Translations under genes and position numbers: made by a program
Assembly (NCBI GenBank): GCA_963798465.1
Contig: CAWCTC010000001.1
Span: 196,315 to 260,314 of the forward strand
Direction: 5' to 3'
Source: an uncultured bacterium
GTDB lineage: Bacteria > Patescibacteriota > Minisyncoccia > Phycocordibacterales > GWA1-40-21
DNA: 64,000 bases
The notes under the pieces: model-generated
Seen by the model: the letters and a program-made list of their open reading frames with translations, nothing else
The model's database searches: none
Told to the model about the DNA's origin: nothing
In this document: one piece after another, positions 4,856-19,678 of the stretch
Numbering within the stretch: the stretch's first letter is position 1
Layout: each line of letters opens with the position of its first letter

Positions 4856-5410
4856 ATGCCCAAGAAAGAAACAAAAATATTAGTTATCATATTTTTGGCG
4901 ATAGATATAATATCTGTCGGAGCTTTTGTGTTTTTATTTTCTATGACATCGCGGATGATTGCGGATTCTATAAACATGGAAAATCAAATATTTACTGAAT
5001 TAAAAACAGACGAAGCAAGAACTCTGATGAAGAATGATCTTGCGAATGGTGAAAATTACCAGAACGAGCTCTCGGCTTATATGATATCTTCAGGCGGAAC
5101 AGTCGATTTTATAAAAACTTTGGGACAGTTGGTTTCAAACAGCAATATAAAGTCTGATATAAAAAGTGTGACGACCGAGCCGTATGACAAAGGAAATGCA
5201 GTCGGCGAGGAATTGCTCGCAGTCGATATAAGCGTTACCGGCGAATGGAATAACATACAATTTTTTATGAAAATGCTTGAAAATTATCCGCTCCGAATAG
5301 ACATGCAAAGCGTATCTTTCAATAAAATTTCAGATTATACGATAGGCGGAAAAGATGTTTCAGAGTGGTCTGGCGAATTTCAATTCACAGTCGTAAAAAT
5401 AAAAGATTAA
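4856..5410 (+). CDS. PilO-like single-pass membrane protein
   Basis: N-terminal TM helix. It is third in the pilMN operon, 1 nt after the previous stop. Confidence 0.35.
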   Translation: MPKKETKILVIIFLAIDIISVGAFVFLFSMTSRMIADSINMENQIFTELKTDEARTLMKNDLANGENYQNELSAYMISSGGTVDFIKTLGQLVSNSNIKSDIKSVTTEPYDKGNAVGEELLAVDISVTGEWNNIQFFMKMLENYPLRIDMQSVSFNKISDYTIGGKDVSEWSGEFQFTVVKIKD

Positions 5411-5546
5411 TCCGCACACTAACTTTGTCATTGTGTTTTTTTGTCAAAAGATATTTAATAAATAATTAGTGTTGTTGCTGCAAATGAAAGTTAATGTTGT
5501 ATAATATTAAAAACATAAGGCAAAGATGACAAAGTTAGTGTGCGGA
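5411..5546. repeat. 21-bp perfect inverted repeat (TCCGCACACTAACTTTGTCAT / ATGACAAAGTTAGTGTGCGGA) flanking a 94-bp AT-rich spacer
   Basis: Read directly: left arm 5411-5431, right arm 5526-5546. The spacer contains TATAAT at 5500-5505. Confidence 0.8.
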
Positions 5547-5560
5547 TAAAAAATAAAATC

Positions 5561-5872
5561 ATGAATAATCCCGCAAAAAAAACATCGACATTCGGAACTA
5601 TAAATTTTTCCGGCAAGCTGGTAAATCCGAAAAGGGATTGGCCTATACTTCTTTTTCTGTCCGTGGTATTCATACTTATTTCAGTCGGTTTTGATGTTTA
5701 TATGTATCTGCAAATTTCAAGCGGCAATATGTATGTGACAATATCGAAAAATGAATTGGTCATAGAAAGTCTCGATTCGTCGACCTTGCAGAATATATTG
5801 AATGATTTTGAAAATAAAAAAGCCAATATTGCCGATTTGAAAATTGATAATTTGGTTGACCCTTCCATATAA
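5561..5872 (+). CDS. hypothetical single-TM protein
   Basis: Listed ORF 5540..5872. ATG 5561 is preferred because GTG 5540 lies inside the inverted-repeat arm. Confidence 0.4.
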   Translation: MNNPAKKTSTFGTINFSGKLVNPKRDWPILLFLSVVFILISVGFDVYMYLQISSGNMYVTISKNELVIESLDSSTLQNILNDFENKKANIADLKIDNLVDPSI

Positions 5873-5910
5873 AACTGTTATATTGTTTTGGCATCTCAAG
5901 AAACATCCAT

Positions 5911-5982
5911 GCCCTTGTAGTTCAATGGATAGAACAGAGCTCTTCTAAGGCTTTGATGTAGGTTCGATTCCTGCCAGGGGCA
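5911..5982 (+). tRNA. tRNA-Arg (anticodon TCT)
   Basis: Manual cloverleaf: acceptor GCCCTTG/CAGGGGC, D arm GTTC..GAAC, anticodon loop CTTCTAA, T arm GTAGG-TTCGATT-CCTGC. No encoded CCA. Confidence 0.85.
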
Positions 5983-6019
5983 CAAAATTAAAAAACGCTG
6001 AAAGGCGTTTTTTAATTTT

Positions 6020-6065
6020 GTGCCCCTGAGGAAGTGCTCAGACGCACTTCCGTGCAGGAATCGAA
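6020..6065 (+). repeat. tRNA-Arg 3'-half mirror module
   Basis: GTGCCCCTG is the reverse complement of the tRNA acceptor 3' strand. It is followed by A + 22-nt hairpin GGAAGTGC-TCAGAC-GCACTTCC + GT. GCAGGAATCGAA is then the reverse complement of the T-loop and T-stem 3' strand. Confidence 0.8.
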
Positions 6066-6145
6066 AAACCTTGAGTATATTTTTGAGCTTTTACTAAAGT
6101 GAAAAAATACGAATGGTTGAAATGCGAATACATGTAGCATTTCAA

Positions 6146-6207
6146 AGACGGAGACTGACGAGTCGAGTCGGGGTCGAGCAAATTTTCAGTAGAAAATTAT
6201 GCGTGAC
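6146..6207 (+). repeat. GC-rich box (AGACGGAG...GTCGAG) plus 25-nt box TTTTCAGTAGAAAATTATGCGTGAC
   Basis: The 25-nt box matches 49192-49216 at 24/25 positions. The GC-rich box resembles 49107-49136, 17604-17640 and the box inside the tRNA-His units. Confidence 0.7.
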
Positions 6208-6373
6208 TACAGCTCCTGTAAGGAGAGATAAGTGTACTCACGGTCCTGCCAAGGGCACACGCATGTGAGACAGACCGAGAGGCTTAAATCCTCGCTTTTT
6301 TGGCGTTGAAAAAAACAACCCCGAAAGGAATCGAACCGAGAAATATTTTAACTATATTTTTCAATGTATCCCG

Positions 6374-7915
6374 CTAGTGAGACCGAGAGGGTTCGATTCC
6401 TATTAAGCGCACAAAATGTTTCTCATTATCTGTAAACTCAGATTTTAGCTTGTAAACTATGCTTAGTTCTGCGGTTTTAAACCCCGGATATGTGTATTCA
6501 ATATTTCTAGGAAAAATCAGCTCTCTTAAAACCCTTAGGTCTTTCACATCTAGGTTTTTCCACTCTTTAGGAAGATGTTTAAGAAAGTCTAAACTAGAGT
6601 CAATGACATTTTCTAATTCAAGTTCTGGAATGAAGATTTCATTAATAGCTTTTTCATGTTCATAAATATCAAATTTTATTTTTTCATTAGCTTCTGTAAA
6701 ATCTTCATCAGATATTTTTCCAGCCAATCTCAAATCAAGCAGTTTTTCTTTTTTATCTTTTCTCTCTAGTATTTTAGATTCAAAACCTGCTTTTGTTGCA
6801 GTTGTAGACTGGAGTTCCTGCTTATGAGCTATCTTAATTGTTTCTTTTAAGACTTCAAATAGATTATCATCAGGAGTTACATCTTTAAGAAGAGAGGTAA
6901 AGTCATTTTCAAAGATTTCCTTATTTATGGAAGTTCTTTTACCACACTCATAGCAATAGCAACTATAATAATGGTAGTATTTACCTCTACCTTTACTTTT
7001 TCCACCACTAATACTTCTACCACAGCCACCACACCTCACCCCTCTCAAAGGATACATGGGATTATCAATGTTCCTTGGAAATTTTTTACTAGCAGATTTA
7101 TTTCTTGCAGATTGAGCTTCAATAAACAACTTCTCACTAATGATTGGTTCATGATTGCCTTTAATAGATATTTCAAATTTGGGAGAAATAATCCATCCAT
7201 AATATACTGGGTTTTTAATTATGTTAGCTACAAGCTGTTTATAGAATTTTATTCCACGGCGACTTTTTAAACCAGTTTTGTTAACTTTTTTTGCCAATTC
7301 TTTAAAAGTATATTTACCTGTAGCATATTCCTCAAAAAGCATTTTAATAATAGGTGCTCTTTCTGGGTGAGGAATTATTATTTTGTTGCCAAGTCTATCT
7401 ATAGTATTTACATAGCCCCAAGGAGCTTTTGAATTGACATAACCTTTAAGAGTTCTGGCTTTCATACCATCAAAAGTTCTTTGTGATTTTACATTATTAT
7501 CAAATTCCGCAAATGAAATAAGCATATTTTCATATAGCTTACCAGCCGGAGTATCTTCAATATTTTCAGTGGCAGAAACTAAAGTAATACCCATTTTGTT
7601 TAAAGAATATTTGAGATATGGATAATCAAACGAAGATCTAGAAAGTCTGTCCACTTTGTAGAAAATAATAATTCCAATTTTATTTTTATTTTTTTCACAG
7701 TATCTCAACATCAATTGGAGTTGAGTTCTGTTTGCAGTTTTAGCACTCTCTCCTTCTTCTCTGAATATCTCTAAAACTTCATATCCATGCTTCAGTGCAT
7801 ATTCTCTACAAGTTTTTTCTTGGCTTCCCAAACTAAAATTTAGGATCTGCTCTTTTGAAGAAACCCTTACGTAAACCAAAGCATTCTTTGGTTTTATTTT
7901 ATTTATATTTTTCAT
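6374..7915 (-). CDS. large serine recombinase (resolvase catalytic domain + recombinase domain + zinc ribbon)
   Basis: ALVYVRVSSKEQ catalytic motif, YKVDRLSRS, Cys-rich CGGCGRSISGG...YYSCYCYECGK, and a C-terminal coiled-coil region. Confidence 0.85.
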   Translation of the reverse strand: MKNINKIKPKNALVYVRVSSKEQILNFSLGSQEKTCREYALKHGYEVLEIFREEGESAKTANRTQLQLMLRYCEKNKNKIGIIIFYKVDRLSRSSFDYPYLKYSLNKMGITLVSATENIEDTPAGKLYENMLISFAEFDNNVKSQRTFDGMKARTLKGYVNSKAPWGYVNTIDRLGNKIIIPHPERAPIIKMLFEEYATGKYTFKELAKKVNKTGLKSRRGIKFYKQLVANIIKNPVYYGWIISPKFEISIKGNHEPIISEKLFIEAQSARNKSASKKFPRNIDNPMYPLRGVRCGGCGRSISGGKSKGRGKYYHYYSCYCYECGKRTSINKEIFENDFTSLLKDVTPDDNLFEVLKETIKIAHKQELQSTTATKAGFESKILERKDKKEKLLDLRLAGKISDEDFTEANEKIKFDIYEHEKAINEIFIPELELENVIDSSLDFLKHLPKEWKNLDVKDLRVLRELIFPRNIEYTYPGFKTAELSIVYKLKSEFTDNEKHFVRLIGIEPSRSH

Positions 7916-7973
7916 AATATTTGTTTTTATAATTAAACCTCCTTTCCTTTAAAAAGAAAAGGAGTTAATCAAG

Positions 7974-8303
7974 TTAATAAATTGCTATCAGTTCTATTCC
8001 GTAATCTTTAATCATCTTTTCTATCCTCTGAAGCTCATCTGGTATTACCGATATTTTGCTCTTATCATTTACGATAAAAGCTCTTATATTTTCTTTATAG
8101 TCATTGCAATACCTTAAAGCTTCTCTCAAATAATATCTGTCACTTACTTTGGTAGCCACGGTATTCTCTCTGAAGATTTTAACTGTACATCCCAATTTCT
8201 TTGCTCTGTTTTTACAGAAGAGTTCCTGTAAAACTGCTTTTCTACATTCACCCTTAACATACGCCCGAGAACTGATAAAAATAACCACGATGTTTTTTTT
8301 CAT
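7974..8303 (-). CDS. small resolvase-catalytic-domain-like protein (degenerate, no DNA-binding domain)
   Basis: 109 aa, with the layout IVVIFISSRAY...LREALRYC...IRAFIVNDKSKIS...GIELIAI, which resembles a serine-recombinase N-terminal domain. It lies directly upstream of the large recombinase. Confidence 0.4.
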   Translation of the reverse strand: MKKNIVVIFISSRAYVKGECRKAVLQELFCKNRAKKLGCTVKIFRENTVATKVSDRYYLREALRYCNDYKENIRAFIVNDKSKISVIPDELQRIEKMIKDYGIELIAIY

Positions 8304-8341
8304 ATTTTTAATTGTTAATTTTGTTTGTAAAGCTTCCCTTT

Positions 8342-8365
8342 ACAGGGAAACAAAGGTTTCCCTGT
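8342..8365. promoter_or_regulatory. 24-bp perfect palindrome ACAGGGAAAC-AAAG-GTTTCCCTGT upstream of the recombinase operon
   Basis: Read directly. It lies ~40 nt upstream (minus-strand sense) of the 8303 start codon. Confidence 0.4.
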
Positions 8366-9480
8366 TATCTAGTTTGTATCCTTGTCCTTATGTTGTTTTG
8401 CCTTTTCTAGAGGCTCTTTTCTTAGCGAGTCCAACCAAAAAGACACTGAGATTGTATAAATGCTCAGCCTTTTTGTTTATTTCTTCTTCTCCTAAATTCC
8501 TAAAATGCAGAGAAAGTAGCTTTGCTATTTTCTCCAAATTTCCAGTATTATTTAACACTTTATTGAGGAGTTAGTGTTTTTACCATTTTTAGGAATAAAA
8601 AAACTAACTACCAAAATTAAAAGCACATCTCTATTTTAAAAAGAGATTTGCATTTAACTTTAAGAGCTAGTTTTATAACAATATTGTTTCTTTTTAATCT
8701 ATGGTTTGGACGAGGTCCAAAACGCAGTAATTTCTGTAAAAATACAATATTATCATCAGCAACACTTTGAACTTATGGGTTCTCGGATGTACGAAGTCAT
8801 GACACGGCCTGTCATTATTTATCCCCTAGAATTTGGGGTTTATGGCTTATAAATCTTGCAATGAACACTTTTCTGCACACAGAGTAATCCCAACTGAAAG
8901 AAATGTCAAATAAATTTAGCAATCAATCTGTGTTTAAACTGTGGAAAGAAAAATGGTCAATTTTCGTATGTAATTATTTGCGAAACTAGTTGAAAAACTA
9001 ACTAAAATTAATATTTGATATTTCAAATACACATACTGTAGCTGAATGTTTTCTAGAAATGATACAAAATATTTTTCAACTAGTTTAGCAAACATTTCTT
9101 TACCATTTATAAAGTAATTTATTTACAATTTTTACCCACTAAAAGACTAAAAAGCATCCCTTTTATTGAGACGTATATTTCAAAAATACCCTTGCATTAA
9201 AAATTCTATTTTCAATTAAATACAATTAAACAATGTTTTAGTCTTTAATTCAAAATAGTGCACTTGGAACAACATAGTCATTGTGATACTATTTCATTAC
9301 AACTTAATACGAAAGTAGCCTAAACTTGATGTAAATCAAGCATGGTGAAAATGAAGTCCCAGAAAGACATAAAAAACCCATCATATGGGGTTGTCTTTCT
9401 GGGCTATATTGGGAAACCAGTATAAACAGCTTTTGCTGTTAACCATGTGGTGGGCTTTTTGTGTACATAAAATATAAATA

Positions 9481-9942
9481 ATGAATCCAGCAGAAGAAAT
9501 AGTAAAATTTTGGCTTCAAGAAAATGGATATTTTCTTCAGTCTTCAATAAGACTAGCTCATAATAAAGAGATAGATATTTTAGCGGTAAATACTGAGAAG
9601 AAAGAAAAATTACACATTGAAGTTTCAGTATCAGTCAGAATGGCTAATTATGATAGAAATCCAAGTGAATTAGCAGAAGAATTTTATCAAAGGAAATTTA
9701 TAGCAGTTGAGAATGATGTAGCGAAAGCTTTTGGAGAGAAGTATAGTAAAAATCTAGTGGTTGGAAATGTTTCTTTTAAGAATAAAGATATCTTGAAAGA
9801 ATTTATTAAGGAATGTGAGAAAAGAGATATAAAGGTGATAACAATAAAAGAGATTTTAGATGTTATCAGACCAAAACTTTCCACTCACACATATTTGAAT
9901 GCTGTAATTAAAACCATTCAGATAGCAAAGGAGTTTAAGTAA
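9481..9942 (+). CDS. hypothetical protein with YraN/Hjc-like PD-(D/E)xK nuclease-fold signature
   Basis: AEEIVKFWLQENGYFLQSSIRLAHNKEIDILAV...LHIEVSVS resembles the GE..a..L...G..il..N.....EiDiia....vfvEVK pattern, but the Lys is replaced. Confidence 0.35.
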   Translation: MNPAEEIVKFWLQENGYFLQSSIRLAHNKEIDILAVNTEKKEKLHIEVSVSVRMANYDRNPSELAEEFYQRKFIAVENDVAKAFGEKYSKNLVVGNVSFKNKDILKEFIKECEKRDIKVITIKEILDVIRPKLSTHTYLNAVIKTIQIAKEFK

Positions 9943-9967
9943 ATTTTATTAGTTAATAAACAAAAAC

Positions 9968-10258
9968 ATGGAAATAATTGGATTAATAGAAATAATAATA
10001 GGATTGGGAATATATTTTATTCCTACATTTGTAGCATATGATAGAAAAATGAAGAATAAAGAAAGTGTATTGTGGTTGAATTTACTTTTGGGGTGGACAT
10101 TTATTGGTTGGGTTGTAGCATTAATTTGGTCATTGATAAAATCCGAGTCAAATGAATCAAAGATTACTCTTGAAAGTGAACTGAAAAAATGTCCTAAGTG
10201 TGCAGAATTAATAAAAAAAGAGGCTACTAAGTGTAAACATTGTGGATCTGAATTATAA
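9968..10258 (+). CDS. superinfection-immunity-like membrane protein with C-terminal zinc ribbon
   Basis: YFIPTFVAYDRK...LNLLLGWTFIGWVVALIWSL matches the Imm_superinfect pattern. The C-terminus carries CPKC...CKHCG. Confidence 0.55.
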   Translation: MEIIGLIEIIIGLGIYFIPTFVAYDRKMKNKESVLWLNLLLGWTFIGWVVALIWSLIKSESNESKITLESELKKCPKCAELIKKEATKCKHCGSEL

Positions 10259-10271
10259 TTTTTAAAAAAAT

Positions 10272-10541
10272 ATGAAAAAACAAAAATACATATTGGAAAA
10301 ATTATATCAAGATTTTAGAAATGCTCTTGCAGAATGGATTGTTGCAAAAACAAAAGCAAGAATTAAAGATGGATTTTATGATTTAAATGATATATTTAAA
10401 AAAATAGAATGGATTGAGAAGTATGATAAGAAAAACAAAAAGATGTTAGATAAGGTTAATAAAACTGAAGAAAAGTTTTTAAATAAAATAAATCCCAAGT
10501 TTTTTAAAAGCTATCTTCAATATTTAAAGGAGGAATATTAG
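10272..10541 (+). CDS. hypothetical protein
   Basis: Listed 89-aa ORF, Lys/Glu-rich, tightly spaced after the previous gene. Confidence 0.35.
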   Translation: MKKQKYILEKLYQDFRNALAEWIVAKTKARIKDGFYDLNDIFKKIEWIEKYDKKNKKMLDKVNKTEEKFLNKINPKFFKSYLQYLKEEY

Positions 10542-10547
10542 ATTTAG

Positions 10548-10940
10548 TTAATCCTGAAAAAACTTAACTATATTACCTACAAAAAGTGATAGTAGACCAT
10601 AGCCAGCCAAAGTTAACCCATAAAGTGTCTGTGGTGTATTTAAATCAATTCCACCATGTTGAGAAGCACTATTTCCAGCCCAAGCCAAACCACCAAAAAT
10701 TGCACACCATGAAAAAAATATAATCCATCTGCCAGTTTTTTTCTTTTTCTCTCCATGAGAAATAACCACTTTATTGGTATTAATACCCATGATTGCAACT
10801 ATAACTGCAACAATTACACCTCCTATTATTGTGCTTATTAAATTACTCATATTGAGTTGTAGTTTAAACAATATAATCAAAAAGTAAAGTAAGACAAAAT
10901 TTAGCACACGTTTTATTGGGCAGATAAAGTTAATATTCAC
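10548..10940 (-). CDS. hypothetical membrane protein (true start possibly Met-31 at 10850)
   Basis: Listed ORF with three to four hydrophobic helices. Confidence 0.4.
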   Translation of the reverse strand: MNINFICPIKRVLNFVLLYFLIILFKLQLNMSNLISTIIGGVIVAVIVAIMGINTNKVVISHGEKKKKTGRWIIFFSWCAIFGGLAWAGNSASQHGGIDLNTPQTLYGLTLAGYGLLSLFVGNIVKFFQD

Positions 10941-10974
10941 AAAGTTATAATTTTATGGTACAGTATAAAAACTT

Positions 10975-12150
10975 ATGACCATAGAAGAAGAAATAACACC
11001 AAGTGATTTTAGAGAGGTTCCTTACGGCGAAAGTAAGATTTTTTTTGATAAAAAATATGTTTTTCATGAACATTTTCAACATAAGAAAAAAACACGCAGA
11101 TTTCCTTATTGCAAAAATATTCTTGCCTTTATATCTGAAAATCCAGGATTAAATATTTATTTTACTTTGGATGAAAAAATAAAACCATTTAAGAAGATTA
11201 AAGATGGCTATCTTATAAATATTGATTCATATATGACATTTTGTGAGGCTATCCAAAGTAGAACTACTGGAAGAGCCAAGGCTTTTCTAAGTCAAAATCT
11301 TAATTTAAAAGACATCAGTGCGACAAAAAAAGATAAAGAAGAATATATTAAAGCAAACGCTGATGAAAAAATTCTTTTAGAAGCCTGTAAAAATCTTGAT
11401 CCTGAGTCTAAAAAAAATATAACTGATGCTTTAAATCAATTACAACCTGCCAATCAAAATGATGAGACTAAAAGACAAGATATAAAAAGCGAGGAGTTTA
11501 TTTTATTGTTTTCTAAATTTCTTTCCGATAAAGACGTCCAGCTAGCTATTATTCAAAATACTCCTAAAATTCAGATTCAAATTCTTAAAGCACATGTTTC
11601 TTTTCTTAAAGAAAATTTAGATAAGAATGAAACATTTATTCAAAATTGGATTGATGAAGATGATGGAAAGTATAGAAAACAAAGATGTCTTATTTTTGGA
11701 ATAGATTATGTAGATCCAAAACGAGAGGGGAGATTGTCTGGTAAAAAATTTGATGTTCTAGCAGAACAAAACAGAGATAACCACGTAATTATTGAATTAA
11801 AATCTCCGAATGCGGATGTATTTGACATTGAATTAAAACCAAATGCTAATGGTGGAGAAGTTGAAGAATTTAGAATCTCTAAAGAATTAGCTAGAGCTAT
11901 ACCGCAAGTACTTGGATATAAAAAATGGTATGGAGGCGCAACCACTGAAGAAATAAAAGAGCTTGGTCTGAAAGAAAAGAAAAATATATCACGTTGTATT
12001 ATTGTTATTGGACAAACTAAAGAATCAGAAGTTTGGAAAGAAAATCTAAATTGTTTAAGAAGCAGCTTATCTTCAATAGACGTATATACTTACACTGATT
12101 TAATACATAAGTTAGAAAATACAATTAAAAATCTTGAGGAAAATCTATAG
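10975..12150 (+). CDS. Shedu-like (DUF4263-type) PD-(D/E)xK nuclease, putative anti-phage effector
   Basis: The C-terminal half (ETFIQNWI...KFDVLAEQNRDNHVIIELKSPNADVF...AIPQVLGYKKWY...CIIVIGQTKE...IDVYTYTDLIHKLENTI) follows the DUF4263 order of motifs. Confidence 0.55.
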   Translation: MTIEEEITPSDFREVPYGESKIFFDKKYVFHEHFQHKKKTRRFPYCKNILAFISENPGLNIYFTLDEKIKPFKKIKDGYLINIDSYMTFCEAIQSRTTGRAKAFLSQNLNLKDISATKKDKEEYIKANADEKILLEACKNLDPESKKNITDALNQLQPANQNDETKRQDIKSEEFILLFSKFLSDKDVQLAIIQNTPKIQIQILKAHVSFLKENLDKNETFIQNWIDEDDGKYRKQRCLIFGIDYVDPKREGRLSGKKFDVLAEQNRDNHVIIELKSPNADVFDIELKPNANGGEVEEFRISKELARAIPQVLGYKKWYGGATTEEIKELGLKEKKNISRCIIVIGQTKESEVWKENLNCLRSSLSSIDVYTYTDLIHKLENTIKNLEENL

Positions 12151-12159
12151 TTAAAAATT

Positions 12160-13467
12160 ATGATAAATATTTGTAAATCACCACTAGATACAGCATATAA
12201 TCGTTTAGATGAAGCACATAGATCTTGGCACAATGCATTAAGCGGTTATCATAAAATAAATGATTTTCGTGCTGGTATAAATAGTGCGATTCAAGCACTT
12301 AGAAATCTAACTTTTGCAATACAAAAACAAAAAGATAATTTGCCGAACTTTGATAATTGGTATGCAGGCTGGCAATCAAAGATGAAAAATGATCCTATTC
12401 TTAAAGAACTTCACGATGCTAGAAACATTATTGTTAAAGAAGAGGATTTAATTTTATATAGTACTGCCAAAGCAACCACAAAAGGTTGGATGGATTTTGA
12501 AAAGACAGCGTTCACCTTTGATCCTTTACAAGATAGTTACACTGTTGCAAAGGATTTTTATGATACATATGCAAAATATTTACCTATAGCAGAAGATCTT
12601 AAAAAAAGATTAATATTTGAGTTTGAAAGAAAATGGGTTTATGAAAAAATACCAGATTATGAATTGTTAGATGCGATTTCTCATTCATATAATTTTCTCT
12701 ATGAAATACTTAAAGATGCAGAAGAAAAATTTTCTTTGCCCATAAAAGAAAATAATAGTACAGGAGATTATTGTACGAATGAATTAAATGACAAAAATAA
12801 ATTAAAATGTATGATAATTACATCACAAGAACGTTGTTTAAAATTTAGTTTTGAAAACGGAGCTTCCCTTGAAATGAAAACAGAAAAAATTTTATTAAAA
12901 GAAAGTGATTTAGATGTTGCACATAAAAGATATGGTGACAAATGGAAATCAGATGAGACACTAGCTTTACTTGAAGGTCTTTTTGCAGATGAATATCCAT
13001 TTAATCAAATGAAACTGTTTTCTCAAGTTGCTGTTGCTGCTCTAAAAAAAGATAAACATCTTATTCCAGTATCTTTCCTTTTTAAAATAAATGATAAAAG
13101 GCCAATGATTATATCTGGTGAATTTCAAAACCAGGAGCATAAAATAATGGTTATGGATAATATTGCTTCAGAAATTGTAAAAAATAATATTAAGTTTGTA
13201 CTTACAATAGCAGAAATTTGGAGATACGATTATGATGAAAAAAACCCACATTTTTTCCCAACAGGAGAACAAAGTGGTAGAGCTAAAGAAGCAATTGAAA
13301 TTGCCTGTTTATCTACTAATAAAATTAAGTTAATTGCGATACCATTCAAAAAGAATATTTTTGGAAAAATTATTTATTCAAAACCAGAGGTAATAAAAGA
13401 ATCTTCCACTGATAATTACCCACCTTCTATTTTTTCACCTATTATTAATGCATTGAGAAGTAATTGA
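12160..13467 (+). CDS. hypothetical 435-aa protein, likely co-transcribed with the Shedu-like gene
   Basis: Listed ORF, 9-nt gap from the previous stop. I recognise no family. Confidence 0.45.
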   Translation: MINICKSPLDTAYNRLDEAHRSWHNALSGYHKINDFRAGINSAIQALRNLTFAIQKQKDNLPNFDNWYAGWQSKMKNDPILKELHDARNIIVKEEDLILYSTAKATTKGWMDFEKTAFTFDPLQDSYTVAKDFYDTYAKYLPIAEDLKKRLIFEFERKWVYEKIPDYELLDAISHSYNFLYEILKDAEEKFSLPIKENNSTGDYCTNELNDKNKLKCMIITSQERCLKFSFENGASLEMKTEKILLKESDLDVAHKRYGDKWKSDETLALLEGLFADEYPFNQMKLFSQVAVAALKKDKHLIPVSFLFKINDKRPMIISGEFQNQEHKIMVMDNIASEIVKNNIKFVLTIAEIWRYDYDEKNPHFFPTGEQSGRAKEAIEIACLSTNKIKLIAIPFKKNIFGKIIYSKPEVIKESSTDNYPPSIFSPIINALRSN

Positions 13468-13761
13468 TTATTTTTTACCAAACTCATCAGGAGATTTCTT
13501 TTCAAGATACCACATTGAAACTTTTACATCACCACGTTGAATAGCGTCAACAATATTAAACTTGGCTGTCATGTTTGGGTACAATTTTAATTGTTGTTTT
13601 CTAACTGCGAAATCAGGATTATTAACCTGGTATCTATAAAGAGCATCTGTTGAAATGGCAGCTAATAAACAAGCTTCTTTGTCAGTACAGCACATTGCGT
13701 ATGCTTCTTCTAATTTCGCAAGTACCTTTTCAGTTATAGTTGATGTTCTACCAGCTTTCAT
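13468..13761 (-). CDS. phage-type HTH DNA-binding protein (terminase-small-subunit-like)
   Basis: GRTSTITEKVLAKLEEAYAMCCTDKEACLLAAISTDALYRYQVNNPDFA...MWYLEKKSPDEF is a pattern common in small phage HTH/terminase small subunits. Confidence 0.4.
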   Translation of the reverse strand: MKAGRTSTITEKVLAKLEEAYAMCCTDKEACLLAAISTDALYRYQVNNPDFAVRKQQLKLYPNMTAKFNIVDAIQRGDVKVSMWYLEKKSPDEFGKK

Positions 13762-13975
13762 ATTAATTAGATTTTAATATCATTAAGCGATAACTTCTCA
13801 ACATCATTTGTTGAAGAATATGTCCAAATCTGAGGTTTTTCAATATTCTTTATAATCTTAGAAAGGTTACAAAGAAATTCAATCAATGGTTTTGAATCTA
13901 GGCTCGTTAGGGGCACATGCATGTGAGACCTATCGAGAGGCTTAAATGTTGAATTTTTTTAGTTATTGAGAGAGA

Positions 13976-16216
13976 TCATTCAAGACCACTTTGCCTAAGA
14001 GCAATATCTTCATCTGCCCGTTTCTTTTGATATTCAATACTTTTCTCTAAATTAAAAACATATTCTTTGGTAAAATCTTGAAATTCCTTACTTCTATCAA
14101 CAGTATATTTTTCTATATTCTCTTTCTTTTTTGTGAGGGCATCAACGAAACCATATTCACCAGTAACTACACCAGTTTGTGACAAATAGCCAAATAATTG
14201 CGACTTGATATTTTTAAGTTCACCGTCTTTTTTATATGTTTTCATTATTTCTTCAACTATTTCATATAAAAATTCTTCGCCTTCATACTTGCCCAATAAA
14301 GAATAGACTATTTCTAAAGACTTCTTATCTTTTTTCTTGATTAACTTAAATAGTTCTTTCTTGAGAGTAGGGTTAAGCTGAGGGAATATATTTGAAATTA
14401 AATTGCTTGCTTCCCAACGATACAGCCAGTTTTCTTTTTCTGAGCCTAGTTCATACCATTTAAAAACCATAGGTATAACCTCCTTTTCGTGTTTACTTAA
14501 TGATTCTGCCAATTTACGAAAATCATATGGAATAGCATCATATCTATCATCTTCTTTGTATTTGCGATTTTTAAGAGTTTTAATTGCTACTCTTTTTTCA
14601 AAGAAATGTATAACTTTTTCTGGGTAAGAATCAGCAATAAAAGTCAGCATGGATTCAGCATCGTAGTTTATATTAATTGTAATCAGTAAAGATTCTAAGA
14701 TTTTATCTAGTTCAGCAGGAGTAAAATCTTTTAAGATTTGTTCTGACTTAAACCATATATGATTTAGCCATCTATCATTCTTTAATTTACAACTTAGTTC
14801 ATATATTACTTCAATTAAGATTTTCTTTAGTCTACCGTCTTTCCCGTAATTTCTTGTAATAGAGTCAACAATATTTGTTAAACTTATAAAATCTTTAGTT
14901 GCTTTAGCCTTTGAAACCACTAAATTAATTAAATCTATATCAACTTCTTCTACATAACTAAAGAGGAATGAAATACTTGGCAAGTTTTTTCCTGCCCCAA
15001 TCCACTTCTTTAATATTTTTATTAAGTCATTTTTCTTTGGACTTTTCCATAATCCAGCAATAAGATTAACCATGAAGGGCGAAAGTTTTTCTAACTTTAT
15101 AAATTCAAAACCAATTTCAGGTTTCGCCTTGGCTAATTCAAATAGGAATATATTAAAATATTGAAATTCACTATATTTATCTGAAGAATAATGACTTACC
15201 ACTTTAAACACTTTTTTTTTCCACTCTTTAATATTAGACATAGACATTGAGCTAATAAATTCTTTTATCTTTTCCAATCTTTGATTTTTTGCTTTGTCCC
15301 AGTCTAATTCTTTTGAAAACTCGTGGTCGTGCCCTACAAAAATCTTGAACATTCCGTAATCACTTTTGGTGGCGATTTTTGATTCAAGTTCCTCAATCCT
15401 TGGGAGAGATTCCTTCTTAGTCCATCGTAAAAACCAATTTTTTCGTTCCTCAATTGTTTTAACCACAACATTGTCTGCTTTATCGATAATTTCTATGTAA
15501 AAATCAATCACCGTGTTTGTGTCACTAGTAATCATATCAATCATATCCTCACCATAAGAATGGTTGCTGGGTCTTCTCGTTGCTTCTTCAAGTGTTTCTA
15601 TAACTTTCTTTTTCTTTTCAGATGTTTCTATAATGGAATACATTTTTTCCAAGAAAGAGATGGCTTCTTTTCTGATAGATATTAATCTTTCGTTTGCATT
15701 AAGGGGTCCGGAATGAAAAGTCATGGTTTTGTAGTCTTGCATGCTCGTGCCTTCAAAAGATGGTTTTAATATACAACCAATAATCAGTAACAAATCTTCC
15801 AAGTGTTCTTTAATGTCTTCATTTTTAAAACTTTTAATGAATTCTAGTACAACTTCTTGTGGTCTATACCCAATCTGTTTTAAAGCATTAAAATCATATT
15901 TAGATAAATACTCCATAGTTTTTCTTGCTTCAGAAGTAGGGCTACCTTCAAATTTCTCTGTAACTGCAAATAAGAGTTTCAATGTTTCTTTGGTTTTTAA
16001 GTACCTTACTTTCTGAAGAACTTCCATAGCTGTATGTAATACATCATCGTATGCTTTACCGTAAATTACATGTGGGCCAAATTTACCCAACGGCTTAGGT
16101 TTGATTTTCTTTTTAGTATTAACAATAACGCTAACTATCTTTATGGCTTTATCAGGAACTTTATAAGCAAACTTCATTAAGTTATTTAATTTTTCTATTA
16201 GTTGGTCATTTGTCAT
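13976..16216 (-). CDS. hypothetical 746-aa alpha-helical-repeat protein, second gene of a two-gene operon
   Basis: Listed ORF. Its start overlaps the stop of the upstream gene by 4 nt (ATGA). No recognisable catalytic motif. Confidence 0.5.
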   Translation of the reverse strand: MTNDQLIEKLNNLMKFAYKVPDKAIKIVSVIVNTKKKIKPKPLGKFGPHVIYGKAYDDVLHTAMEVLQKVRYLKTKETLKLLFAVTEKFEGSPTSEARKTMEYLSKYDFNALKQIGYRPQEVVLEFIKSFKNEDIKEHLEDLLLIIGCILKPSFEGTSMQDYKTMTFHSGPLNANERLISIRKEAISFLEKMYSIIETSEKKKKVIETLEEATRRPSNHSYGEDMIDMITSDTNTVIDFYIEIIDKADNVVVKTIEERKNWFLRWTKKESLPRIEELESKIATKSDYGMFKIFVGHDHEFSKELDWDKAKNQRLEKIKEFISSMSMSNIKEWKKKVFKVVSHYSSDKYSEFQYFNIFLFELAKAKPEIGFEFIKLEKLSPFMVNLIAGLWKSPKKNDLIKILKKWIGAGKNLPSISFLFSYVEEVDIDLINLVVSKAKATKDFISLTNIVDSITRNYGKDGRLKKILIEVIYELSCKLKNDRWLNHIWFKSEQILKDFTPAELDKILESLLITININYDAESMLTFIADSYPEKVIHFFEKRVAIKTLKNRKYKEDDRYDAIPYDFRKLAESLSKHEKEVIPMVFKWYELGSEKENWLYRWEASNLISNIFPQLNPTLKKELFKLIKKKDKKSLEIVYSLLGKYEGEEFLYEIVEEIMKTYKKDGELKNIKSQLFGYLSQTGVVTGEYGFVDALTKKKENIEKYTVDRSKEFQDFTKEYVFNLEKSIEYQKKRADEDIALRQSGLE

Positions 16217-17100
16217 AATTTTTTCTTTATGTCTTTTAAATATTCTTCAGCAATGTCTTCTAATACTTCTTCTGAATTTTTATTTCTGATTTCTGCTATT
16301 TTTCCTAAAATCACAGCCTTTTGCTTTTCATCTTTTGCCATAGCTGTAATGCTGTTAACTTCTTTTTTTGTAAGCTTAGAAATATATTCTGCAATTTCTG
16401 CTAAGCCTGATTTTTCATCTGAAACTAACAGTATACGACCAACACTTTTAATTAGCCCTCTTTTTAAAGACTCATACAGTAAGGCTGTGAACTCTTTGTT
16501 TTCAATTGAAAGTTTCTCTTTAATTTTATCAATACTTGCCACATCTCCATCCTGAATGGGTGCTAATAAATAAAAAATACCAATGAAGGCATGTATCTTT
16601 TCTTCTATACCATTAACAATGGCATTCCACTCATCAGCCACGAAATTATCATCTCCTAGGGCAATATTGTACCAATCATTTAGATAGTTCGTGTCATCTT
16701 TAATGGATTTATCAGGGTCAAGAACTATTGTTTTGTGCTTTTGATTTTCTTTTATGTCTAAAGTTCTTAAAAACTTTTTATCAATTTCCTGCCAGCAAGC
16801 AATTTTTTTATCATTATCTACAAGTATAAAAACTACTGGTGGGCTAGATTTTGCCCAGTGTTGTAAGTCCGATACTCTGCAAGGGAATGAATACTTCTTA
16901 AGCTTAACTTTACCTTTCGCCTGATAGAGTAAATATTTACTTGTATAAGATTTGTTATCTGCTATGAACTGCAAAAGACCGTCTACTCCGGGGTAATTTC
17001 CATTTATGGGTAAATGCTCTAAATATCTCTTGTTTAGTAAATCGCCTAATATTCCTACTGCCTGCCCATCTATTATTTTCTGCTCAGTTGTTTTTGGCAT
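16213..17100 (-). CDS. DUF4365-like restriction-endonuclease-fold protein
   Basis: The N-terminus (GQAVGILGDLL...YPGVDGLLQF...YLLYQAKGK) resembles the D.GiD...vQvK core of DUF4365/Mrr-like PD-(D/E)xK domains. Confidence 0.45.
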   Translation of the reverse strand: MPKTTEQKIIDGQAVGILGDLLNKRYLEHLPINGNYPGVDGLLQFIADNKSYTSKYLLYQAKGKVKLKKYSFPCRVSDLQHWAKSSPPVVFILVDNDKKIACWQEIDKKFLRTLDIKENQKHKTIVLDPDKSIKDDTNYLNDWYNIALGDDNFVADEWNAIVNGIEEKIHAFIGIFYLLAPIQDGDVASIDKIKEKLSIENKEFTALLYESLKRGLIKSVGRILLVSDEKSGLAEIAEYISKLTKKEVNSITAMAKDEKQKAVILGKIAEIRNKNSEEVLEDIAEEYLKDIKKKL

Positions 17101-17434
17101 TTATCCAGTCATTCTAACATTTATTTTGAAACTCAGAAATCTAAAAATTCAGAATTTATGATGGGGTAATTTTTAACTAACCCGCACCTTTTTGTTATTC
17201 ATCACTACCTTACTCCTCAAGTATTACTCAGTATGCACAATAAATTTGCTTTAAAATAAATTAAAAAAATCCTCTGTAAAATTTCAGGGGATTTTTTATT
17301 GTTTGTTTTACTTCGATTATTTAAAAATTATTTTTTATTTGTTTTTTCCATTTTTTAATGTAATATAACTTTGCAAGGGCGCTTAGCTGTTTTGGCTAAC
17401 ATGCAAGTTTACAAGTTTTGAAAGTTTAATGTTT

Positions 17435-17508
17435 GGGCGCTTAGCTCAGTTGGTTAGAGCACCTCATTTACACTGAGGGGGTCAGGGGTTCGAATCCCTT
17501 AGCGCCCA
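17435..17508 (+). tRNA. tRNA-Val (anticodon TAC)
   Basis: Manual cloverleaf: GGGCGCT/AGCGCCC acceptor, GCTC..GAGC D stem, anticodon loop TTTACAC, T arm AGGGG-TTCGAAT-CCCTT. No CCA. Confidence 0.85.
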
Positions 17509-17539
17509 CAAATAAAATCTGCGACAGCAGATTTTTTGA

Positions 17540-17584
17540 TGGGCGCTAGCACGCAAATTGCTTTGCGTGCGTAAGGGATTCGAA
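17540..17584 (+). repeat. tRNA-Val 3'-half mirror module
   Basis: TGGGCGCT is the reverse complement of the acceptor 3' strand. It is followed by A + 22-nt hairpin GCACGCAAA-TTGC-TTTGCGTGC + GT. AAGGGATTCGAA is then the reverse complement of the T-loop and T-stem 3' strand. Confidence 0.8.
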
Positions 17585-17702
17585 AGACTTTTCCGTGTCG
17601 AGTGAAACGAGACGGAAAAGTACCCGCGACGGTCGTCGAGAATCCCTGAGTTGTTTAAATAGCAGTTATCTCAAATCTATGCTAAATTATTAAAATAAAT
17701 TT

Positions 17703-18994: not shown

Positions 18995-19678
18995 ATGGTG
19001 AAAAGGGGACCAAAACCAAGAAGTAAAGTAAAAATAAAATGGTCTGCAAATTTTGCTTATGCAATCGGGCTTATTGCAACAGATGGCAATTTATCTCCCG
19101 ACGGCAGACATATATCATTTACTTCAAAAGATATTGAACAAATCAATAATTATCAAAAAGCATTAAAAATTAGTTGCAGTATAGGAAAAAAAAGTAATGG
19201 TTTTGTTAAAGAAAAAAAATATTATGTAGTACAGTTTAGCGATATTTTTTTCTATCAATTTTTAGAATCTATTGGAATAACTCGTGCAAAATCAAAAACT
19301 CTGGGTAAAATAGATGTTCCATCAAAATATTTTTTTGATTTTTTACGAGGCTCATTTGATGGCGATGGTACATTTTATTCATATTGGGATAAAAGATGGA
19401 AATCTAGTTTCATGTTTTATTTGGAATTTATATCAGCGAGTAAAAAACATATCTTATGGATAAGATCTGAGATTGAAAAGAGATTAAAGATTAGAGGACA
19501 TATAACTAATGATGGCAGTAAAAAAACGTTACAATTAAAATATGCCAAAAGAGAATCGCTGGAAATTATTAAAAGAATGTACTACAATCAAACGGTTGTT
19601 TGTTTATCCCGCAAGCGTATTAAAATTATCAAAGTTTTAAAGATTGAACATAATCAGCAAAAGAGGTATGAGTTTTGA
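18995..19678 (+). CDS. free-standing LAGLIDADG-family homing endonuclease
   Basis: Two LAGLIDADG-type motifs: AIGLIATDGNL and FLRGSFDGDGTF. Confidence 0.75.
   Translation: MVKRGPKPRSKVKIKWSANFAYAIGLIATDGNLSPDGRHISFTSKDIEQINNYQKALKISCSIGKKSNGFVKEKKYYVVQFSDIFFYQFLESIGITRAKSKTLGKIDVPSKYFFDFLRGSFDGDGTFYSYWDKRWKSSFMFYLEFISASKKHILWIRSEIEKRLKIRGHITNDGSKKTLQLKYAKRESLEIIKRMYYNQTVVCLSRKRIKIIKVLKIEHNQQKRYEF

Follow-up and report, generated by a model that had tools for sequence, protein, structure and literature searches.

A coupled nuclease-like and alpha-solenoid gene pair as a candidate split immune system in a reduced Patescibacteriota genome

How should we read a short nuclease-like gene coupled to the gene for a long helical-repeat protein in a bacterial genome of 0.75 Mb? 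We took up this question for two genes, here called gene A and gene B, in a 64,000-nt stretch of contig CAWCTC010000001.1 (assembly GCA_963798465.1, positions 196,315 to 260,314) from an uncultured bacterium of the Patescibacteriota. This whole stretch is the window, and all positions below refer to it unless another locus is named. A preliminary description had proposed the two genes as a candidate defense pair. Our analysis supports that proposal, with nuclease-fold evidence from profiles and structure, co-occurrence of the two parts in other bacteria, and neighborhoods that point to defense rather than to housekeeping. By analogy with DSR2 and Vulcan, the pair is probably an immune protein of the abortive-infection type that is divided into an effector subunit and a sensor subunit. 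These two systems show that the kind is already known; we did not find this solenoid family, its effectors, or its frequent two-gene form described in the literature. The preliminary description had the pair right and missed three things: that it is the split form of a protein fused elsewhere, that the effector is swappable, and that a Shedu gene lies in a neighboring, separately bounded element.

The predicted nuclease and its solenoid partner

The features of the operon, all on the minus strand, are as follows.

16213..17100, minus: gene A, open reading frame (ORF) of 295 aa; proposed effector subunit, predicted DUF4365/DREN-type nuclease plus helical linker
13976..16216, minus: gene B, ORF of 746 aa; HEAT/ARM-like alpha-solenoid, proposed sensor or scaffold subunit
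16657..17100, minus: predicted nuclease domain of gene A, residues 1-148
17068-17070 (D11), 16981-16983 (D40), 16921-16923 (Q60), and 16915-16917 (K62), minus: candidate catalytic residues of gene A, codons read from the sequence
16219..16644, minus: residues 153-294 of gene A, its helical C-terminal linker, in which a winged-helix-like unit comprises H187-213 and strands 217-226
16213..16216, minus: ATGA stop/start overlap (translational coupling), with an A6 run just before it
15701..15769, minus: most conserved block 1 of gene B, residues 150-172, LKPSFEGTSMQDYKT.TF..GPL, spanning the sole beta hairpin
14126..14182, minus: most conserved block 2 of gene B, residues 679-697, SQTGVV.GEYGF..A...K, a glycine-rich loop
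17101..17376, minus: upstream noncoding region; a single weak sigma-70-like match lies at 17280..17253

The sequence agrees with the claim that two minus-strand ORFs are coupled through an ATGA. Positions 16213-16216 read TCAT on the plus strand, that is, ATGA on the coding strand, where the gene A stop (TGA) and the gene B start (ATG) share bases. The junction on the coding strand is AAG AAA AAA TTA TGA, with the ATG of gene B beginning one base ahead of the gene A stop. A scan for the sigma-70 consensus gave 9 sites versus 18.5 expected from shuffles, which provides no evidence of promoter function.

The PD-(D/E)xK-like core of the DUF4365 type that had been read by eye in gene A (PGVDGLL...LLYQAKGK) was recovered by a Pfam DUF4365 (PF14280) match of 40.4 bits over residues 37-136 (cutoff, 24.3 bits; E value, 3.7e-10). 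The sole PADLOC match was to Aga_REase-PNTD1-PNTD2 (E value, 1.8e-10), a model for Argonaute-associated nucleases of which gene A matches the nuclease part, profile positions 34-122 of 429 only. We aligned gene A with three close homologues, two fused N termini, and seven separate partners from other loci; residues D11, P37, D40, G41, Q60, and K62, which include the D40/Q60-x-K62 motif, were invariant in 13 of 13 sequences. In the available part of a study of the DUF4365-APAZ nuclease TmuRE, Q62 and K64 are put forward as belonging to the active site, and the Q62A/K64A double mutant serves as an inactive control (PMC10810196); Q60 and K62 of gene A correspond to these two residues.

The AlphaFold2 (AF2) model of gene A (mean predicted local distance difference test [pLDDT] score, 82.1) places an alpha/beta domain at residues 1-148 and disorder at 151-161; the C-terminal half is helical and includes the winged-helix-like unit in its secondary structure. 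When this model was compared with the PDB by Foldseek, the 13 best rows were all SPARDA DREN-APAZ chains (E values, 1.1e-7 to 3.6e-4; alignments of 138-157 columns), and archaeal Hjc resolvases ranked next. The MarR-family rows obtained for the linker were weak. Because gene A has the DUF4365 match and the invariant D...QxK motif and finds SPARDA nuclease subunits as its best structural matches, we assign it, from sequence and model, as a predicted DREN-type PD-(D/E)xK nuclease with a restriction-endonuclease-like alpha/beta fold and an intact catalytic motif. The nuclease fold proposed from the letters alone is therefore backed by both profile and structure.

Gene B had been called long, alpha-helical, and repeat-like, with no motif that could be named, and this view held. 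The AF2 model (mean pLDDT, 86.2; predicted template modeling score, 0.69) is an all-helical alpha-solenoid apart from one beta hairpin at residues 153-171, and no family in Pfam, PADLOC, NCBIfam, or PHROGs matched the protein. Fold searches (Foldseek, VIA wide, and VIA second look) returned generic HEAT/ARM proteins only, among them CRM1, CAND1, importins, PP2A-A, and designed repeats, with a best Z score of 13.2, in the range common for helical repeats, and query-normalized TM-scores of 0.06-0.37. No DSR2 chain was among the matches listed, which does not exclude a likeness to DSR2. A profile search of PDB sequences with the gene B family gave nothing below an E value of 0.079, and the Pfam HEAT and HEAT_2 repeat hidden Markov models (HMMs) had no match in gene B at an E value of ≤0.1; two relatives, P0012 and P0013, had HEAT matches of 17.4 and 18.5 bits, both below the cutoff. 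A search of the ESM Atlas with gene B gave only unnamed clusters of 789, 798, and 530 aa. The predicted likeness to HEAT proteins is at the fold level only. Two blocks stand out within the solenoid: block 1 is a dense run of invariant columns in an alignment of eight sequences (A2) and forms the hairpin in the model, and block 2 has invariant columns in alignments A1 and A2 and is modeled as coil.

We predicted a complex of gene B with residues 140-295 of gene A. The score was 0.57, versus 0.02 for the best of three controls, and the runs agreed in at least 93% of contacts, with a partner pLDDT of at least 72. The mark used for this prediction was reached by 58 of 80 solved complexes and by 2 of 110 mismatched pairs; it was reached with a score of ≤0.60 by only 7 of the 80 solved complexes and by both of the mismatched pairs that passed. 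The prediction gives weak support for binding of the two proteins.

Split and fused forms of the family

A word-indexed search found 15 nonself homologues of gene B. One is a separate 743-aa protein with 58% identity, two are fusions of 1038-1039 aa with an N-terminal DUF4365 domain, seven are fusions of about 965 aa with RelA_SpoT, and one is fused to a MerR/HTH (helix-turn-helix) domain; the remainder are three separate proteins of about 800 aa and one fragment. Gene A residues 36-293 align with residues 41-296 of both DUF4365 fusions (E values, 2e-21 and 3e-20), the linker aligning with residues of about 160-296. From these alignments, the window pair appears to be the split form of a modular protein that is a single chain of about 1030-1040 aa in relatives. 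Because relatives join both parts in one chain, a functional link between A and B can be drawn in the Rosetta-stone manner.

The split is itself conserved. Three close homologues of gene A (P0018, P0019, and P0020; 292-295 aa; 80, 68, and 55% identity) keep the gene A stop position, and this shared stop, together with the separate gene B homologue, shows that the split is not an artifact of the A6 run. We accordingly rejected a sequencing or frameshift error at that run. The 743-aa gene B homologue and the gene A homologue with 55% identity are each listed on one 14,111-nt contig, probably the same one. Some other lineages are also split, with a 14-nt overlap.

An exhaustive profile search revealed a large solenoid family: 1623 clusters (at 50% identity) at an E value of ≤1e-3, 1271 at ≤1e-10, and 815 at ≤1e-30. 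Of the new representatives, 148 were listed: 96 fall short of 850 aa, and 52 reach or exceed it. We scanned 49 of these 52 fused representatives and found DUF4365 in 19, RelA_SpoT in 25, and no Pfam domain in 5; SIR2 or DUF4062 was found in none of the 49. The RelA/SpoT-fused relatives match the PADLOC candidate PDC-S33 over their N-terminal 200 residues (E values, 2e-14 to 4e-13).

Alignment A2 also led to 19 genome loci of the family (L001-L019), of which L006 and L014 have almost no upstream flank. They comprise two fused and eight split DUF4365 forms (one partner being cut by a contig end), five fused RelA/SpoT forms, a locus with an HNH-like separate upstream partner gene (L019), one with an unknown partner in which the split is placed before the linker (L010), a broken copy (L012), and a copy cut by a contig end (L014); L018 was assigned to the RelA/SpoT forms through its 47% identity to L003. 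Plasmids carry four more copies: two have PIN-domain partners, one is a RelA/SpoT fusion, and the fourth is a 1310-aa fusion. In the genome loci, 10 of 10 separate solenoid genes have a partner gene that abuts them upstream in the same orientation, as do 2 on plasmids. The expectation that the two genes would occur together elsewhere thus held, either as fusions or as abutting pairs.

The 1310-aa fusion (L025, positions 4912-8844 of that locus) is on Rhizobium rhizogenes plasmid pC6.5d and is annotated as a member of the poly-gamma-glutamate hydrolase family; it may represent a further effector class. Genes for a SIR2 family protein, VapBC, and an integrase are nearby.

In a FastTree phylogeny of 173 solenoid modules, the minimum is 8 switches of effector between DUF4365 and RelA and 13 switches between fused and separate forms; these counts are slightly inflated by two sets of identical, doubly labeled rows, and the tree carries long-branch warnings. 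Gene B of the window and relative P0002 are sister to fused DUF4365 forms with a local support of 98.

Distribution, neighborhoods, and the island in the window

The genome that contains the window has one copy of the solenoid family. None of 60 related genomes has it (25 of the same genus, 11 of the same family, and 24 of the same order), and it occurs in 8 of 400 other genomes of the phylum (E value, ≤1e-10), each from a different genus. Copies with 35-43% identity were found in Firmicutes, Nitrospirota, and Gamma- and Deltaproteobacteria. A tblastn search of 50,697 phage records gave no match, and a search of IMG/VR viral contigs with two peptide patterns found none.

Restriction-modification (RM) genes lie within about 4.5 kb in 8 of the 19 loci. 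Together with the position of the window copy in an insertion that is absent from 4 of 4 comparable same-genus genomes (see below), this argues for a defense rather than a housekeeping neighborhood. Other neighbors are capH/capP-like and LexA-like regulators, DUF4238 (which we take to be the named system Rst_DUF4238), a PLD-SNF2 helicase, integrases, a serine recombinase, and a Prim-Pol gene with a gp3-like packaging gene. The capH/capP-like (HTH plus M78 peptidase) or LexA/S24-type regulators directly adjoin the system in three loci (L011, 10506-11528; L005, 6068-6700; L018, 5797-7308), which hints at DNA-damage-responsive control.

The arrangement of the RM genes raises a special case of the defense reading with a different trigger. 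In six of the 19 loci (L001, L003, L004, L007, L009, and L011), the system directly follows, and so ends, a co-oriented type I, IIG, or III RM cluster, with gaps of −4 to 161 nt or one small gene between; L005 and L018 have divergent methyltransferase clusters with a LexA-like regulator. The system might then be an accessory of RM operons that senses failed or inhibited restriction, for example, by phage anti-restriction proteins, and fires a nuclease or RelA/SpoT effector. PrrC, which is coupled to EcoprrI, would be a precedent. We consider such a guard of RM an unlikely reading, if not a negligible one: 11 of the 19 loci, the four plasmid loci, and the window lack RM genes in the stretch examined, the linked RM systems are of unrelated types, and general clustering in defense islands fits equally well.

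The pair in the window lies at the right end of an 11.4-kb island, for which we list the following features.

5911..5983, plus: tRNA-Arg(tct), left flank of the island
17435..17509, plus: tRNA-Val(tac), right flank of the island
17377..17398, plus: partial duplicate of the tRNA-Val 5' end, 12 nt exact and 22 nt at 82%; right edge of the island
6253-6301 (left copy) and 13911-13959 (right copy), plus: 49-nt direct repeat D1, 82% identity

The gap between tRNA-Arg and tRNA-Val is 11,451 bp here, versus 29, 34, 40, and 335 bp in the 4 of 4 same-genus genomes that have both tRNA flanks on one contig (in one of these, ARAGORN calls tRNA-Val on the other strand). The AT-richer tract described before is present but modest, with a GC content of 0.27-0.35 over 13.75-17.25 kb versus 0.35-0.39 directly to the right. 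The repeat noted at 13.9 kb proved to be the right copy of D1, which has only two copies in the genome and separates the A-B pair from an element with a serine recombinase and Shedu. The reported duplication of the first 12 nt of tRNA-Val is also exact: GGGCGCTTAGCT has exactly two occurrences in the window, one at 17377-17388 and the other at the tRNA-Val 5' end (17435-17446). With up to one mismatch there were 3 matches versus 0.07 expected, and 0 of 100 shuffles reached 3, which rules out a chance origin. That the duplicate marks a second insertion boundary is plausible and unproven. The insertion is composite, with the A-B pair outside the D1-bracketed element, between D1 and the partial tRNA-Val duplicate.

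The D1 element (6253-13959) looks like a satellite or prophage remnant with defense cargo. Among its genes are those for a large serine recombinase (6374..7915, minus; phrog_95 integrase), a protein of superinfection immunity (9968..10258), Shedu SduA (10975..12150; SduA_C E value, 6.9e-10), and a phrog_19262 protein of 435 aa, with its start 10 nt past Shedu; a further gene, of 97 aa (13468..13761, minus), is small-terminase-like. An Rfam LOOT RNA (RF03000) lies inside the inserted element at 9317-9440 on the plus strand (75.7 bits; gathering score, 46.4). Around tRNA-Arg (5961-6417), a perfect 24-nt inverted repeat (5975-5998/6005-6028) takes in the tRNA 3' end, an inverted copy of the tRNA-Arg T-arm is found at 6319-6337, and a direct 28-nt copy of the tRNA-Arg 3' end (82%) is found at 6390-6417, within the 3' end of the recombinase gene. 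These scars suggest repeated integration events at the site.

Just past tRNA-Val, a GC-rich structured stretch (17536-17655, plus) has a minimum free energy of −47.1 kcal/mol (z score, −3.86) and no Rfam match. Related sequence follows tRNA-Val in one other genome (G019) and is absent in two (G021 and G020). A free-standing LAGLIDADG_3 homing-endonuclease-like ORF (18995-19678, plus; E value, 1.8e-6) lies between rplS and tRNA-Leu.

Proposed function and comparison with known systems

The reading that we favor is that genes A and B encode the two halves of a split immune protein, and from the observations above we infer physical binding of the halves, an activating trigger, an activation step, and an anti-phage phenotype. 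In this model, the winged-helix and helical linker of gene A would dock on gene B and so reproduce the single-chain form of other bacteria. The nuclease would be kept inactive on the solenoid in the uninfected cell. Binding of an invader-derived trigger, most likely a phage protein, to the solenoid would change its conformation or oligomeric state, and this change would bring the nuclease domains together, as with DREN filament assembly in SPARDA. Indiscriminate DNA cleavage would then cause growth arrest or death of the infected cell and protect the population.

Several points weigh against this reading, to which belong the long-branch warnings of the tree and the weak prediction of the complex. 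Four or five loci sit amid ordinary genes, and most of these are of the RelA/SpoT type (L013, L015, L016, and L017): L016 is by smpB, infC, and rplT, L017 is by glycosyltransferases and a two-component system, L015 is by tgt, and L013 has a comparable setting. The window copy has no adjacent RM genes, PADLOC v2 has no model for the solenoid, and we found no experiment on any member of the family. The two near-invariant solenoid motifs (residues 150-172 and 679-697) are kept across phyla. A surface that keeps pace with fast-evolving phage proteins would not usually be so constant, and the motifs could instead point to a small ligand or to an enzymatic role; a simple variable-sensor model leaves the motifs unexplained, and we keep open a fixed-ligand or guard function.

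A quite unlikely explanation is that the pair is a toxin-antitoxin or addiction module, in which the solenoid is the protein antitoxin of a toxic nuclease and the pair stabilizes an island or plasmid with no phage sensing. The effectors of the family (DNase, RelA/SpoT of the toxSAS kind, PIN, and HNH) are classic toxin domains, and copies occur on plasmids and beside integrases and recombinases. However, an antitoxin of 750 aa that is conserved over its full length and often fused in cis (52 of 148 representatives) does not resemble the labile antitoxins that are usual in such modules. Proteins that fuse toxin and antitoxin, such as CapRel, themselves act as phage sensors.

It is very unlikely that the pair forms a housekeeping or regulatory complex outside any conflict, for example, in DNA repair or nucleotide signaling on a HEAT scaffold. 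The loci among core genes named above and the conserved motifs, which suggest a fixed ligand, agree with such a role, but the absence of the family from 60 of 60 relatives, its presence in only 8 of 400 genomes of the phylum, the swapping of effectors, and the island location do not. Scarcely credible is decay of a formerly fused gene into a nonfunctional pair by frameshift: the overlap follows an A6 run, one extra A would join the frames, and fused relatives are sister to the window clade, but the gene A stop is kept in homologues at 80, 68, and 55% identity, the 743-aa gene B homologue at 58% identity is separate, both ORFs are full length with all invariant residues, and the other split lineages overlap by 14 nt.

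Returning to the split immune protein, we also put forward, as a tentative extension that is unlikely to hold as a whole, that the solenoid defines a large unnamed family of immune sensors (the 1623 clusters, in many phyla that include ultra-small Patescibacteria-type genomes) that drive interchangeable effectors in cis or as a coupled gene. This family would have been recruited 3' of type I, IIG, and III RM operons as a second-line guard that fires when restriction is evaded or inhibited, and the two invariant motifs would together make up an unchanging site at which a conserved trigger acts.

Should the family prove defensive, a widespread sensor scaffold would be added to the bacterial immune receptors, and the SPARDA nuclease domain would be in use outside Argonaute systems. 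The pair would also be among few candidate abortive-infection systems in episymbiont-type genomes, which are reduced to about 0.75 Mb and in which each gene comes at a cost. For structural work, it should be useful that one machine exists naturally both as a single chain and as two chains, and the repeated position behind RM operons offers a testable idea of layered immunity.

No paper combining DUF4365, RelA/SpoT, or PIN with a HEAT-like sensor came up in our literature searches, although supplementary tables may list the family under a candidate name, and the text of DefensePredictor has no mention of DUF4365 or the solenoid. Four groups of known systems bear comparison with the pair. SPARDA shares the nuclease domain of gene A (DUF4365, D...QxK), with 9qcc, 9jt2, 9vx6, 9jsz, 9qbp, and 9qbq as the best structural matches. 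According to the available part of the SPARDA literature, its DREN domains assemble as filaments, and the effector logic, a collateral DNase switched on by assembly, is by analogy probably common to both. Unlike in SPARDA, gene A has no APAZ domain, its PADLOC match being confined to the nuclease part and its C-terminal half being helical and winged-helix-like; the coupled gene B is an all-alpha solenoid without a Piwi or Argonaute match, and as far as the architecture tells, sensing by the pair would not be nucleic acid guided. We ruled out membership in SPARDA itself on the lack of an APAZ domain and of an Argonaute gene.

Divona, a Vibrio integron cassette protein with DUF4365 and crr6 domains, is described in the available part of its preprint as a non-Argonaute defense protein (bioRxiv 10.1101/2024.07.02.601686). 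It thereby has DUF4365 in the context that we propose for gene A; it differs in having crr6 as the C-terminal partner domain and in being a single small cassette protein. Among the relatives of gene B, the RelA/SpoT fusions suggest an effector of the toxSAS kind that a sensor domain controls in cis, as in CapRel-type toxSAS and PDC-S33. This likeness concerns the relatives and not the window pair, and the C-terminal sensor is a solenoid of about 750 aa and not a small antitoxin domain.

The closest analogy in overall design is with DSR2 and Vulcan. As far as the available portions of the sources describe them, DSR2 consists of SIR2, MID, and a C-terminal alpha-solenoid with which it detects the tail tube of the phage (PMC11850899 and PMC11263360), Vulcan joins an NIR (DUF4062) NADase to HEAT repeats and is activated by lambdap79, and recognition of a phage protein by the helical-repeat region leads to abortive infection in both; SthRAP-13B, with a TIR domain and a HEAT-like region, is a further case of an effector joined to helical repeats. 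The fused relatives of the pair likewise join an N-terminal enzymatic effector to a large C-terminal helical-repeat region. The family differs in its effectors, which are predicted DNase, RelA/SpoT, PIN, or HNH domains and not NADases, and in a solenoid with generic fold matches only and no detectable sequence relative in the PDB. Where DSR2 and Vulcan carry effector and helical repeats together, the family described here often divides them between two genes, as in the window.

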